A stretch of DNA of 64,000 bases from an uncultured Acidimicrobiaceae bacterium (GCA_963822265.1 CAWGHA010000044.1:1871-65870), one strand, 5' to 3'. Numbered from the stretch's first letter, positions 13,723 to 21,358 are shown. Notes: generated by a model not told the origin, from the letters alone. Program-made: numbers and translations.

Positions 13723-13873
13723 GGCGCTCGACGATAACAACAGGTCCCCGACAGGACCCGAAAAGGGCGAGACGACGGAGCGGCGGAGGAGATCAGGCGC
13801 CCGTCGTGGCCGCCCGCACGGCGTGGCCCGCAGCGAGGTGAACCGGACCGTAGGTGAACGTTGAGTGATCCAC

Positions 13874-13902
13874 TTCACACGACGGAAAAGCTGGGCTAAA
13901 AC
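13874..13902 (+). promoter_or_regulatory. candidate sigma-70-type promoter of Kelch gene 1 (TTCACA-N17-TAAAAC)
   Basis: Hexamers and the 17-nt spacer were read directly. The -35 hexamer and 17-nt spacer are conserved in copy 2 (17122-17150), where the -10 reads TAAACC. Confidence 0.3.
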
Positions 13903-13992
13903 CGGAGTCACGAACCGAAGTTCGAGCGTGCGAACGACCGGAACCGAACGGGATATCGCCCGATCCGGCACGCCGAGATACGGAGGTGGTCG

Positions 13993-17239: not shown

Positions 17240-20047
17240 ATGACGCTTCGTCGAGCTCGCGGGTCGTTGGCCGGGGAACACAGGTGCCGTGGAAGGCAGA
17301 GTCGCTGGGCGCTCTGGGCCGCGCTGATACTCGCCGCGGGGCTGCTGCCCGTCGCGGCCGCATCCGCCGCGTCGGTTCCGGCGGGAGCCCAGACGGTGCA
17401 ACCGCCCAACACCTGGTCCCCGACCGCCGGAGAGATGTCGGTCGCCCGAGCCGGACAGACCGCAACCCTCCTCCCCGACGGTGACGTCTTGGTCGCCGGA
17501 GGGGGCACCAGGACCGCCGAGCTCTACAACCCCTCGACCGGCGCCTTCACCCCGACGGGCTCAATGTCGGTGGCCCGCACCGACGCCACGGCCACCCTTC
17601 TGCCGAGTGGCGAGGTGCTCGTCGCCGGCGGGGTCGGCAGCCGCGGCCGGCAATTGGCCAGCGCCGAGCTCTACAACCCCTCGACCGGCACCTTCAACCC
17701 GACTGGCTCCATGCACACGGCCCGCTCCGGGCACACGGCCACTCTGCTGGGCGACGGCAAAGTGCTCGTCGCCGGGGGTGGATGCAACAAGGGCCACGGG
17801 AACTGCGACGCCGGCAGCTTCCTCGACAACCTGAGAAGCGCCGAGCTCTACAACCCCAAGACGGGAACCTGGAGCACCACCGGCTCCATGCAATTCGAAC
17901 GGGAGTACTTCGCCGCCACCCTGCTCGGCGACGGGGACGTCCTCGTGGCCGGCGGCTTCGCCACATGCGACGACGACTTCTGCTCCGACAACCGGCAGGC
18001 CGAGCTCTACGACCCCAAGACAGGGACGTGGAGCGCGACGGGCTCCATGCAGCGGGCTCGGGAGCAGTTCAGCGCGACGCTCCTCGCCAACGGTGAGGTT
18101 CTCGTCGCCGGCGGCCTCAACGAGGGCGGCTTCAACGGCTACACCAAGACCTTCTCCGAGGCCGAGCTCTACGACCCTGCGTCCGGCACCTGGAGTCCGA
18201 CCGGCTCCATGTCCGAGCCGAGGTACGGGCAGGCAGCGGCGTTGCTGCCGGGAGTGGACTGGGTCCTCGTCACCGGCGGGACGAGCGACGCCACGAGTGA
18301 GGTCTACCAACCGGCGACGGGCAAATGGGTGCCGACGGGGTCGATGAGCACGCCCCGGACCGACCTGACCGCGACCGTCCTGTCGGACGGGAACGTGCTC
18401 GCAACCGGCGGCACCGGCACGGACGGCTCGGCCCAGACGACAGCGGAGATCTACCAGAACAGCTCCGGCCCGCTCGTTTCCATCAGGCCGCATGGATTGT
18501 CCTTCGGCGCCCAACAGGTGGGCTCCACCGGGTCGCTCCAGAGCGTGACGGTCACGAACGTCGGGACGGCTGATCTCCACGTGAGCGGGGTCGACATCTC
18601 TGGCAGCGACCCGGGCGACTTCGTCGCACAGGACACCTGCGGCCTCATGGCCCCCGGAGCCAGCTGCACGGTCGCGGTGGGGTTCTCCCCTACCGGTATC
18701 GACCTGCGCCAGGCCACGGTGGGCGTGGCCGACGACGCTCCCGGGAGTCCCCAAGGGTTCGCCGTGAGCGGCTACGGACGCGGGCCCGGGTCGTGGACAC
18801 CGACCGGCTCGCTCGCCATCGGACGCGAGGGAGCCTCGGCGACGCTCCTCCCCGATGGGGAAGTGCTGGTGGCCGGTGGTGAGAACGAGGTCGACCAGGG
18901 CAGCCTGTCCGACGCCGAGCTCTACCACCCATCGACCGGCACCTTCACGCGGACGGGTTCGCTCAACGTGGCGCGCGCCTTCCCCACCGGCGCGCTGCTC
19001 GCCGACGGTGACGTCCTGGTCGCCGGCGGCCTCTCGAACGTCCCCAGCGCGCTGTCGAGCGCCGAGCTCTACGATCCGGCCACCCAGAGCTGGAACCCCA
19101 CGTCGCCCATGAACGACGTGGGGTACAGGCTCACGGCCACCGTGCTCACGGACGGCGACGTGCTGGTCACCGGATTCGGCGCGTCACCGCCTGAGGTGTA
19201 CGACCCAGGCGACGCCACCTGGACCGATACCGGTCCGCTCCCGGTCGCCAACGAGGACGCGACCGCGACCCTGCTCGGCAACGGCGACGTGCTGGTGGCC
19301 GGGGGTAAAACAACCGCTGCCGCCCTCTACGACCCCACCTCCAACGACTGGAGCGCCACCGGTTCCATGGCGGCCGTCCAGGAAGGCCCGACGGCGACTC
19401 TGCTCGGCACCGGCGATGTGCTTTTGGCCGGGGGCGAGAACCCCAACGAGTTCAACCCGCTCACGACCTCCGAGGAGTACGACCCGTCCTCGGCGACCTG
19501 GTCGCTGTCCAATGGTCAGATGAGCGTCCCCCGGGAGGGCCAGGCCGCGGTCGAGCTTCCCGATGGCAATGCCCTGGTCGTCGGTGGCTGCAGCGCGGAG
19601 TGCGACAGCGGCCAGATCACGGCGACCGCCGAGGAGTTCGAAGCCCAGGGCGGCTACTGGTTCAGCGTCGGGTCGATGACCCAGCCCCGCTACGACCCGT
19701 CTGCGACCCTGCTGGGCGACGGCGACGTGCTGGTGGCCGACGGCAGCGACTACTGCTGCCAGTACTACGCCACCGCGGATCTGTACTCGCTCGACTCCAT
19801 TTCGGTCCACCCCACCAGCGGCCACGTGGGCCGGCGGGTCACGCTGAAAGGCCGCGGCTTCTACGCCTTCGAGCCGGTCGTCGTCACGTGGAAATTCTCC
19901 AGGATCGCACGCGTCAAGACCGACGCCGACGGCGCCTTCGTGGTGAAGCTCACGGTCCCGTCGGGCCCCCCGGGCAAGGTCACGATCGAGGCCGAGGGCC
20001 AGAAGAGCTTCAGCTCCGCCTCGACGAGCTTCCTGGTGACGCCGTAG
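17240..20047 (+). CDS. exported double Kelch/beta-propeller protein, paralogue of 13993-16800
   Basis: 935-aa intact ORF with the same length and architecture as copy 1. Confidence 0.85.
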   Translation: MTLRRARGSLAGEHRCRGRQSRWALWAALILAAGLLPVAAASAASVPAGAQTVQPPNTWSPTAGEMSVARAGQTATLLPDGDVLVAGGGTRTAELYNPSTGAFTPTGSMSVARTDATATLLPSGEVLVAGGVGSRGRQLASAELYNPSTGTFNPTGSMHTARSGHTATLLGDGKVLVAGGGCNKGHGNCDAGSFLDNLRSAELYNPKTGTWSTTGSMQFEREYFAATLLGDGDVLVAGGFATCDDDFCSDNRQAELYDPKTGTWSATGSMQRAREQFSATLLANGEVLVAGGLNEGGFNGYTKTFSEAELYDPASGTWSPTGSMSEPRYGQAAALLPGVDWVLVTGGTSDATSEVYQPATGKWVPTGSMSTPRTDLTATVLSDGNVLATGGTGTDGSAQTTAEIYQNSSGPLVSIRPHGLSFGAQQVGSTGSLQSVTVTNVGTADLHVSGVDISGSDPGDFVAQDTCGLMAPGASCTVAVGFSPTGIDLRQATVGVADDAPGSPQGFAVSGYGRGPGSWTPTGSLAIGREGASATLLPDGEVLVAGGENEVDQGSLSDAELYHPSTGTFTRTGSLNVARAFPTGALLADGDVLVAGGLSNVPSALSSAELYDPATQSWNPTSPMNDVGYRLTATVLTDGDVLVTGFGASPPEVYDPGDATWTDTGPLPVANEDATATLLGNGDVLVAGGKTTAAALYDPTSNDWSATGSMAAVQEGPTATLLGTGDVLLAGGENPNEFNPLTTSEEYDPSSATWSLSNGQMSVPREGQAAVELPDGNALVVGGCSAECDSGQITATAEEFEAQGGYWFSVGSMTQPRYDPSATLLGDGDVLVADGSDYCCQYYATADLYSLDSISVHPTSGHVGRRVTLKGRGFYAFEPVVVTWKFSRIARVKTDADGAFVVKLTVPSGPPGKVTIEAEGQKSFSSASTSFLVTP

Positions 20048-20168
20048 TCGGCCGCACCGTCCCGAGCGCCCCGACCCCTCGGAGAACCCCGTAAGGTCTC
20101 TCGGTCGCCCGTGCCATGTGGCTGGGTGTTGCGTCCGGCGCGACGTGGAGACATCGAAGGGGTCCAGC

Positions 20169-21358
20169 ATGGCGAACACGTGGTTCGAGACGGTGGCCGA
20201 GGCGCAGCGGCGCGCCAAGCGCCGGCTGCCCAAGTCGGTGTACGGGGCGCTCGTCGCCGGGTCCGAGCGCGGAACCACCCTCGAGGACAACGTCGCCGCC
20301 TTCGGCGAGCTTGGTTTCGCTCCCCACGTGGCCGGCCTCGCCGCCACCCGCGACCTGTCCGTCAAGGTCATGGGCCAAGAAGTCTCCTTTCCCGTGCTGA
20401 TCTCGCCGACTGGGGTGCAGGCCGTACACCCCGAGGGAGAGGTGGCCGTGGCGCGGGCGGCCGCCGCCCGGGGCACCGCGATGGGCCTGAGCTCCTTCGC
20501 CAGCATGCCGATCGAAGAGGTCGTGGCCGCCAACCCCCAGACGTTCTTCCAGATCTACTGGATCGGGTCGCGCGACGACGTGCTCGCCCGGGTCGAACGC
20601 GGCCCGTGCCGCCGGCGCCGTCGGGCTCATCGCGACGCTGGACTGGTCCTTCTCCCATGGGCGCGACTGGGGCAGCCCGACCATTCCCGAGACCATGGAC
20701 TTCAAGACGGCTCTGCAATTCGCGCCCGAGGCGTTGGCACACCCCCGCTGGCTCTGGTCGTTCGCGGTGGACGGGAAAGGTGCCGGACCTGACCGCCCCA
20801 AACATGGTGGCCAAGGGGGAACGAGCTCCGACCTTCTTCGGCGCCTACGGGCAGTGGATGCAGACGCCTCCGCCGACCTGGGACGACGTGGCCTGGCTGC
20901 GCGAGCAATGGGGCGGGACGTTCATGCTCAAGGGCGTGACGCGGGTGGATGATGCACGGCGCGCCGTCGACGCGGGCGTGAGCGCCATCTCGGTGTCCAA
21001 CCACGGGGGGAACAACCTCGACGGGACACCCGCCACCATCCGCGTGCTCCCCTCCATCGTCGAGGCCGTGGGCGGCGCGGTCGAGGTCCTCCTCGACGGT
21101 GGCATCCGGCGGGGCGGGGACGCGGCGAAGGCGCTCGCCCTGGGGGCGCAGGCCGTCATGATCGGCCGGGCCTACCTGTGGGGCCTGGCGGCGAACGGAC
21201 AGGCGGGCGTCGAGAACGTCTTGGACCTGCTGCGGAGCGGGTTCGAGTCGGCGTTGCTCGGCCTCGGGCACAGCTCGGTCCACGAGCTCAGCCCGGCGGA
21301 CATCGTCATCCCAGAGGGATTCGGCCGCGTCCTCGGAGGCGATGCCCGGCCGGAGTGA
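20169..21358 (+). CDS. mftD: pre-mycofactocin synthase MftD (FMN alpha-hydroxyacid-oxidase family), two frame breaks as assembled
   Basis: Starts MANTWFETVAEAQRRAKRRLPKSVYGALVAGSERGTTLEDNVAAFGELGF.... Then ...LDWSFSHGRDWGSPTIPETMDFK... (second frame) and ...VPDLTAPNMV...FFGAYGQWMQTPPPTWDDVAWLREQWGG...SNHGGNNLDG... (third frame). Breaks are near 20598 and 20780. Confidence 0.85.

Follow-up and report, generated by a model that had tools for sequence, protein, structure and literature searches.

How two long Kelch genes came to stand in tandem in front of mftD, and how one short stretch of them remained nearly identical while the rest diverged, are the questions raised by a stretch of 64,000 nucleotides (nt) from an uncultured soil Acidimicrobiaceae bacterium (GCA_963822265.1, CAWGHA010000044.1:1871-65870; hereafter the window, ~70% G+C), which carries a mycofactocin (mft) locus. 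The two paralogues, K1 (13993-16800) and K2 (17240-20047), lie on the plus strand, and each encodes a predicted exported protein of 935 amino acids with two Kelch propellers. We found that K1 and K2 belong to an old tandem segmental duplication, that K1 is the older, divergent copy and a phylogenetic chimera, and that the 5′ ends of the two genes have probably been homogenised by repeated gene conversion, the latest over 253 nt.

Local alignment returned two colinear copies at 13839-16950 and 17087-20202 (84.6% identity across 3120 columns), where the earlier note had placed them. All six small indels between the copies fall in the ~310 nt of flanks, none in the open reading frames (ORFs), and the two ORFs of 935 codons each align without gaps (84.8% nucleotide and 80.6% amino acid identity) and have the same third-position G+C (0.89). 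Each ORF is preceded by a leader, consisting of a conserved upstream region and the 5′ untranslated region (UTR): leader 1 occupies 13839-13992, includes a GGAGG ribosome-binding site and is 89.5% identical to leader 2 (17087-17239). K1 is followed by a 3′ UTR (16801-16916) that includes the mftD ribosome-binding site and is homologous to the K2-mftD intergenic region, and then by a stub of mftD (16917-16950) made of the start codon and codons 2-11 (MANAWFETVAE). The start of mftD (ATGGCGAA..TGGTTCGAGAC) has two matches in the window, at 16917 and 20169, against a chance expectation of 0.01. The second opens the real mftD (pre-mycofactocin synthase, 20169-21358, plus strand), in which unit 2 ends at 20202, at codon 11/12; the first continues into unrelated sequence, with a stop at 17105. 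The stub and the homology of the K1 3′ UTR to the K2-mftD junction uphold the earlier note's claim that the duplication took place at the mft locus and comprised a leader, a Kelch gene and the 5′ end of mftD.

The duplicated unit is nevertheless longer than that claim had it, for the whole region between the methyltransferase gene and the Kelch gene was duplicated as well. The spacer between the stub and leader 2 (16951-17086, 136 nt; X2) aligns to 13726-13831, between K1 and the divergently oriented methyltransferase gene, with a local score of 26, reached by none of 500 dinucleotide shuffles (12.2 ± 1.9). X2 is a decayed copy of that intergenic region (X1, 13726-13838); the alternative, that it derives from mftD past codon 11, was ruled out for lack of similarity (z = 0.2). 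The units thus defined run strictly head to tail, 13726-16950 (3225 nt) followed by 16951-20202 (3252 nt), and the whole, adjacent colinear copies with a novel join, has the form of a tandem segmental duplication. The left neighbour is a class I S-adenosylmethionine (SAM) methyltransferase gene (13057-13722, minus strand; identified by Pfam Methyltransf_11/25 and its translation, and kept in the loci L055, L056 and L058-L061 described below), whose GTG start (13722-13720) lies 4 nt from the left breakpoint. The novel join at 16950|16951 (GTGGCCGAGGGCACGACGAC) fuses codon 11/12 of mftD to a point 4 nt upstream of that start. GGCGC is present at the breakpoints in both parental sequences, and microhomology-mediated illegitimate recombination at this motif is a plausible origin of the join, which the decayed junction no longer proves. 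As a separate observation, the stub retains a ribosome-binding site and a start codon and opens a 62-codon ORF (16917-17105; MANAWFETVAEGTTTNQ...), which might yield a junk peptide and is conserved within the species only.

The closest public genomes are metagenome-assembled genomes (MAGs) named "uncultured Acidimicrobiaceae bacterium" from the Microflora Danica project, which were obtained by deep Nanopore long-read sequencing (PMC12313526). One 18-kb contig (L055), assembled independently for the same species from a different sample (ERZ25039484), is 98.4% identical to window 11573-29693 and contains both Kelch copies (99.7% identical to K1 and 99.6% to K2) together with the stub, at its position 5334. 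The tandem pair is therefore genuine and not an assembly artefact, as judged from this second assembly rather than from reads.

Seven syntenic loci were recovered among relatives, with one to three Kelch copies each. The earlier note had proposed a check of whether related genomes have a single Kelch gene before mftD, and this is what the three nearest relatives have between the methyltransferase gene and mftD: L056/L057 (91.8% identical to the window), L060 (94.0%), and L061 (95.2%). The alignment of L056 to the window switches at the ends of the repeat (13839/17087 and 16953/20205). The more distant relatives have other junctions between their copies. Both L002 and L058 have two Kelch copies with no stub between them. 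In L059 (8747-18708) there are three paralogues, two upstream of mftD and one between mftD and the alcohol dehydrogenase gene, and they are deeply diverged from one another (synonymous divergence, dS, 0.66-0.83). The mftD-proximal gene of L058 (12500-15298) is not orthologous to the other mftD-proximal genes (dS 0.52-0.53) and has its nearest counterpart in another MAG, at a non-mft locus (L001, 10001-12817; dS 0.345), which suggests that this copy was replaced by recombination. In L056 the Kelch start (~9917-9925) reads ACG instead of ATG, and the gene is called 28 codons shorter (907 amino acids); a sequencing error, use of a non-canonical start or a shift of the start site could account for this.

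We used the flanking genes as a synonymous clock for the age of the copies. The flanking genes give a dS of ~0.16 between the window and L056, ~0.40 between the window and both L002 and L058, and ~0.50 between L059 and all others. Outside the near-identical tract described below, dS between K1 and K2 is 0.407, compared with 0.238 for K2-L056, 0.388 for K2-L002_B, and 0.439 for K1-L002_B. Over 14531-16800, K2 is 95.5% identical to the L061 gene (from ~17780 on, K2 is the orthologue of the relatives' single Kelch gene), and K1 is 82-84% identical to K2, L061, L060, L056 and L002_B alike. The 3′ UTR with the stub gives 95.5% for K2-L061 and 77.7% for K1-K2. X1 and X2 are ~66% identical in the local alignment and 52% in a multiple alignment. 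These divergences of X and of the 3′ UTR and stub approximate the synonymous level (proportion of synonymous differences, pS, 0.32), as expected if the parts of the unit are of the same age and these drift neutrally.

Neighbor-joining over the 3′ 2.27 kb grouped K2 with the L061 gene (bootstrap 1.0), united the four local B-type genes (1.0) as (((K2,L061),L060),L056), and joined these to L002_B with K1 excluded (1.0). The grouping (K1,K2) had a bootstrap of 0, and third positions alone agreed. K1 was also rejected as an orthologue of the position-1 copies of L002, L058 and L059 (bootstrap 0; dS 0.53-0.63 vs. 0.40-0.44 to B-type genes), which form a clade of their own (1.0). The Kelch gene of L004 is frameshifted in its assembly; it was compared as DNA in the K1 frame, and its position in the protein tree was disregarded. 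The K1 body and the stub split from the mftD-adjacent lineage at about the time of, or before, the split of the L002 lineage; K1 is not a recent copy of K2, and its body is older than the split from species 13-20% diverged. The in-locus tandem origin proposed earlier stands, with the refinement that the duplication is old rather than recent (dS 0.41 vs. ~0.16 for the species). The first 540 nt of the K1 coding sequence (CDS), on the other hand, group with the local clade, with a bootstrap of 0.98, or 0.85 when the tract is left out. This makes K1 a phylogenetic chimera and implies that its 5′ end was converted more than once.

Sliding-window identity between the copies is 97-99% at ~14090-14340 and 72-92% elsewhere, and divergence is thus not uniform along the unit. 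The near-identical tract (14099-14351 in K1 and 17346-17598 in K2; CDS offset 3247 nt) lies between mismatches at 14098 and 14352 and has exactly two of its own, at 14181 and 14277, in 253 nt, matching the earlier count of two in about 250 nt. Within it, dS between K1 and K2 falls to 0.067, against 0.41 elsewhere, and the proportion of nonsynonymous differences (pN) is 0. The minimum of three differences in 90 consecutive third positions was reached by none of 20,000 permutations. Among quartet-informative sites, 16/17 inside the tract group K1 with K2, compared with 17/90 outside; over 14531-16800, 17 sites favor (K1,K2) and 55 favor (K2,L056). The tract tree joins K1 and K2 with a bootstrap of 1.0. 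The homogenised synonymous sites, the permutation result and the switch in topology argue for gene conversion, as had been proposed for this tract. Together with the chimeric structure of K1, the tract points to recurrent conversion that was restricted to the leader-proximal fifth of the gene. In L002 (6889-12787), the two Kelch copies are 93% identical over ~300 nt (equivalent to 14528-14828) and 75-83% identical elsewhere; this is an independent conversion tract at another position in the gene.

The two genes give a dN/dS of 0.32 and have no stops or frame disruptions over 935 codons, which shows that both copies are under purifying selection and suggests that they are kept as functional genes. 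From pairwise distances, dN/dS is ~0.35 on the K1 branch and ~0.21-0.23 on the K2 and L056 branches. Amino acid differences between K1 and K2 are spread over all domains, with no significant concentration in loops relative to strands (P = 0.20).

We consider it fairly probable that these observations reflect an old duplication with vertical retention of the array, losses in relatives and repeated conversion at the 5′ end. A 3.2-kb segment (intergenic region, leader, Kelch gene, 3′ UTR and mftD codons 1-11) would have been tandemly duplicated at the mft locus through illegitimate recombination, with mftD codon 11/12 becoming linked to the point 4 nt upstream of the methyltransferase start, possibly via GGCGC. 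The array would predate the radiation of the window species and the three single-copy relatives, and recombination between the repeats would later have removed the upstream copy from L061, L060 and L056. Direct repeats readily give rise to deletions of this kind. Both copies would have been retained as functional genes, their 3′ 2.3 kb diverging freely, while the 5′ end (leader, signal peptide and first blades) would have been homogenised repeatedly by conversion, the last event leaving the 253-nt tract. Vertical retention accounts for the divergence of the K1 5′ end from the local genes, which is approximately as deep as the clade itself.

Several points weigh against this history. On the tree, retention requires at least three independent losses of K1 (in L061, L060 and L056), and homologue searches found no K1 orthologue outside this species. 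The 5′ ~0.8 kb of K2 is more diverged from L061 than the rest (82-90% vs. a baseline of 95-98%), which also fits an imported block. The direction of the latest conversion is read differently by different evidence: site counts against L056 and L002_B lean toward K1 to K2, and the tract tree, in which the shared sequence falls inside the local clade, leans toward K2 to K1. As for the expression and export of the retained genes, export, like function, is predicted from the protein sequence, and the promoter that had been proposed in each leader was not recovered: a sigma-70-type consensus scan of 13600-20400 returned no site, and the pair TTCACA-17-TAAAAC, picked by eye, fails the -10 rule of the scan.

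The main rival is an import by recombination, in which a K1-bearing block (~13726-17900: K1, the stub, X2 and the 5′ 0.7 kb of K2) came from a divergent, unsampled relative with an array and the single copy is ancestral; we regard this as possible, though rather unlikely. One gain is more parsimonious than at least three losses, identity between the window and L061 drops to 69-90% over 16951-17950 from 94-98% on both sides, K1 is ~16-17% diverged from every B-type gene, and the mftD-proximal gene of L058, closest to an unlinked gene of another MAG, illustrates that replacement occurs in the family. Against an import, the 5′ CDS of K1 groups with the local clade (0.85) at about the depth of the clade's radiation, as long co-residence with a local B-type gene predicts and a recent import from outside does not. 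Furthermore, the 5′ region is unusually diverged in all pairs of relatives, so that the dip in K2 is non-specific, homologue searches revealed no donor lineage, and the methyltransferase gene contains no clear left boundary of a block.

A recent in-situ duplication in this species followed by rapid divergence of K1 is very improbable. The stub and the colinear flanks do point to a local origin, and dN/dS is somewhat higher on the K1 branch, but divergence in the coding body is matched by that at synonymous sites (dS 0.41) and in the non-coding flanks (78% identity for the 3′ UTR with the stub, ~66% for X), and K2 is 95.5% identical to L061 yet 83% to K1, with a bootstrap of 0 for (K1,K2) over 2.27 kb. 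Strong purifying selection on the first blades, as a substitute for conversion, would be in keeping with the pN of 0 in the tract and with the conservation of the encoded blades in the family. Nevertheless, orthologues in close relatives differ by 10-14% over the equivalent tract, and constraint alone therefore cannot explain the near-identity of K1 and K2; with synonymous sites homogenised too (0.067 vs. 0.41) and the topology switching at a bootstrap of 1.0, we give this explanation hardly any credence. A false duplication in assembly has a negligible probability: the many indel errors and odd poly-A runs of the window do betray an imperfect assembly, but the copies differ at 15% of positions, L055 has both copies, the junction and the stub, and deep Nanopore reads such as those behind the related MAGs (PMC12313526) usually span a 3.2-kb repeat.

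Tandem paralogues, birth-and-death evolution and partial concerted evolution are well-known phenomena, and what we describe is ordinary gene-family evolution, namely birth and death of copies at one locus, with gene conversion recurring at the 5′ end. Santoyo and Romero are said to have reviewed concerted evolution in 2005. Bacterial paralogues partly kept identical by gene conversion are exemplified by tufA and tufB in Salmonella. With such pairs K1 and K2 share one segment of much higher similarity than the remaining sequence, synonymous sites included, and incongruent phylogenies of tract and flanks. They differ in that the copies are adjacent, only the 5′ fifth is homogenised and the 3′ 2.3 kb is free, and in that close relatives have one to three copies. 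The locus offers a clean natural case of the evolution of a bacterial surface or secreted protein family: the mftD stub is a junction scar that fixes the site of duplication, single- and multi-copy relatives bracket the history, and the chimeric phylogeny points to conversion confined to the 5′ end. It also draws attention to a large uncharacterised family of ~920-amino acid, double-Kelch, predicted exported proteins that is abundant in soil metagenomes; homologues of this length run into the thousands in metagenomes. Knowledge of mycofactocin and of duplication mechanisms is unchanged. One may speculate further that the mftD-proximal array is a dedicated diversification locus of soil Acidimicrobiaceae, in which exported double-propeller binding proteins are copied, lost, exchanged among lineages and conversion-patched behind a conserved 160-nt leader to give each population a different repertoire, possibly tied in function to, or co-expressed with, the mycofactocin redox system; we consider this doubtful.

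The mycofactocin setting itself, recognised in the earlier note, is well founded. Upstream of the array, on the minus strand, are an SDR gene, mftE, mftC, mftB and mftA, followed by mftF on the plus strand and then the methyltransferase gene. The product of mftC (9717-10871) matches TIGR03962 with 610 bits, above the NCBIfam equivalog cut-off; mftF and the N-terminal part of mftD match their NCBIfam equivalog models (TIGR03966 for mftD); and an mftA peptide was found at 11151-11297 (minus strand), ending in IDGMCGVY. Downstream of K2 are mftD, an NDMA-dependent alcohol dehydrogenase gene, a cyclase gene and two TetR regulator genes. The locus shares with the canonical mftA-F cluster mftA, mftB, mftC, mftE and the SDR gene on the minus strand, mftF and mftD on the plus strand, and the neighbouring NDMA-dependent alcohol dehydrogenase, and differs from it in that the methyltransferase gene and one or more Kelch genes separate mftD from the other mft genes. 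To our knowledge, the described mycofactocin system contains no Kelch gene, and we found no paper that combines mycofactocin or Acidimicrobiia with Kelch. The Kelch gene is not supported as a component of the mycofactocin system: among the loci compared, its adjacency to mftD was seen only in this Acidimicrobiaceae clade, close paralogues occur at loci without mft genes (L001 and L004), and there is no dedicated family model. Adjacency in one clade is the only link between the Kelch family and mycofactocin.

The Kelch proteins match Pfam Kelch_6 with 186 bits (cut-off 25.3) and Kelch_1 with 171 bits. According to Pfam and NCBIfam, the repeats form two blocks, separated by a choice-of-anchor-D/HYDIN-type immunoglobulin (Ig) domain (residues 411-502) and followed by a C-terminal Ig-like domain. 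An AlphaFold model built from a 39-sequence alignment (mean pLDDT 87.6) is all-beta from residue 59, with residues 1-52 disordered, and there are seven blade motifs per half (7+7). Foldseek matched the model to Kelch domains (KEAP1, KLHL and the designed SAKe; TMt 0.75-0.78). The protein is thus modelled as two seven-bladed Kelch propellers, each followed by an Ig-like domain. By inspection, the N-terminus has an Arg-rich n-region, a hydrophobic stretch (WALWAALMLAAGLLPVAAASA) and an ASA motif. Invariant Cys pairs occur at 182/189, 243/248, 467/476 and 784/788, and K1 and K2 have ten conserved Cys positions in common. The protein appears to be exported and disulfide-rich. Its Arg-rich, hydrophobic N-terminus and invariant Cys pairs, together with the lack of catalytic signatures, point to an exported binding protein, probably with a ligand- or protein-binding rather than a catalytic role.

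Homologues have been named inconsistently by annotators (mutarotase, WD40, "large repetitive protein"), and two enzymatic identities were tried and rejected. A copper radical oxidase (GlxA) is contradicted by NCBIfam GlxA scores of 113 and 101 bits against a cut-off of 800. Radical copper oxidases coordinate the metal with two His and two Tyr, and have a Cys-Tyr cross-link; the 39-sequence family alignment contains no invariant or near-invariant His, so that the copper ligands are lacking, and His positions differ between K1 and K2. An N-acetylneuraminate epimerase or mutarotase (NanM/YjhT) is contradicted by 24-37 bits against cut-offs of 256-416, and by Pfam NANM scores of 32-39 against 45. 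With galactose oxidase and GlxA (AA5) the Kelch proteins share a seven-bladed propeller followed by a beta-sandwich, here twice, and predicted export (Foldseek E ~1e-21, TMt 0.33-0.50), but they are not members, given the GlxA score below cut-off and the lack of a conserved His. With eukaryotic KEAP1 and KLHL2/3/12/17 and the designed SAKe they share the blade motif and the propeller fold (profile search E down to 7e-56). The eukaryotic domains are six-bladed and belong to intracellular adaptors, whereas the proteins encoded here have 7+7 blades, a signal-peptide-like N-terminus, Cys pairs and Ig-like domains.

The earlier note had counted both Kelch genes among the few long genes of the window with intact frames. 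The Kelch frames are indeed intact, but the contrast to broken neighbours does not hold, as most of the neighbours' breaks are 1-nt indels relative to L055. The window and L055 differ by 27 indel events, mostly 1-nt insertions in the window; ten lie at 11.6-13.2 kb, in mftF and the methyltransferase gene, and 1-nt insertions at 20601 and 20766 break the frame of mftD twice, whereas mftD and the genes downstream are intact in L055. The indel at 17427 is an error in L055 rather than in the window. The broken frames of the neighbours are most simply long-read consensus errors and not pseudogenes, and the intactness of the Kelch genes among them therefore carries no weight. In translation, mftB and mftE (~8900-11150) also look frameshifted. 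The mftF gene is split in L002 and apparently incomplete in L055, and may be hard to basecall or truly decaying. Poly-A runs at 63017-63625 (609 nt) and 63654-63850 (~197 nt), 28 nt apart amid 70% G+C and followed by G+C-rich sequence from 63851, look like an assembly or read artefact rather than biology.

An Rfam search of 13600-20400 at E ≤ 1 gave no match, and RNAalifold on 11 leaders did not support an RNA structure (covariation term 0.04, one compensatory pair). The leader of ~160 nt (13839-13992 and 17087-17239 in the window) is kept before Kelch paralogues in L001, L002, L004, L056, L058 and L059, unlinked loci included, with the recurring blocks GTGAACGTT, CTTCACAC, GCTGGG.T.AAACC, CGAACCCAA.TCCGAGCGTG, and GGAGGTGG.CGATG. 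One possibility is that it serves these genes as a common promoter or operator.

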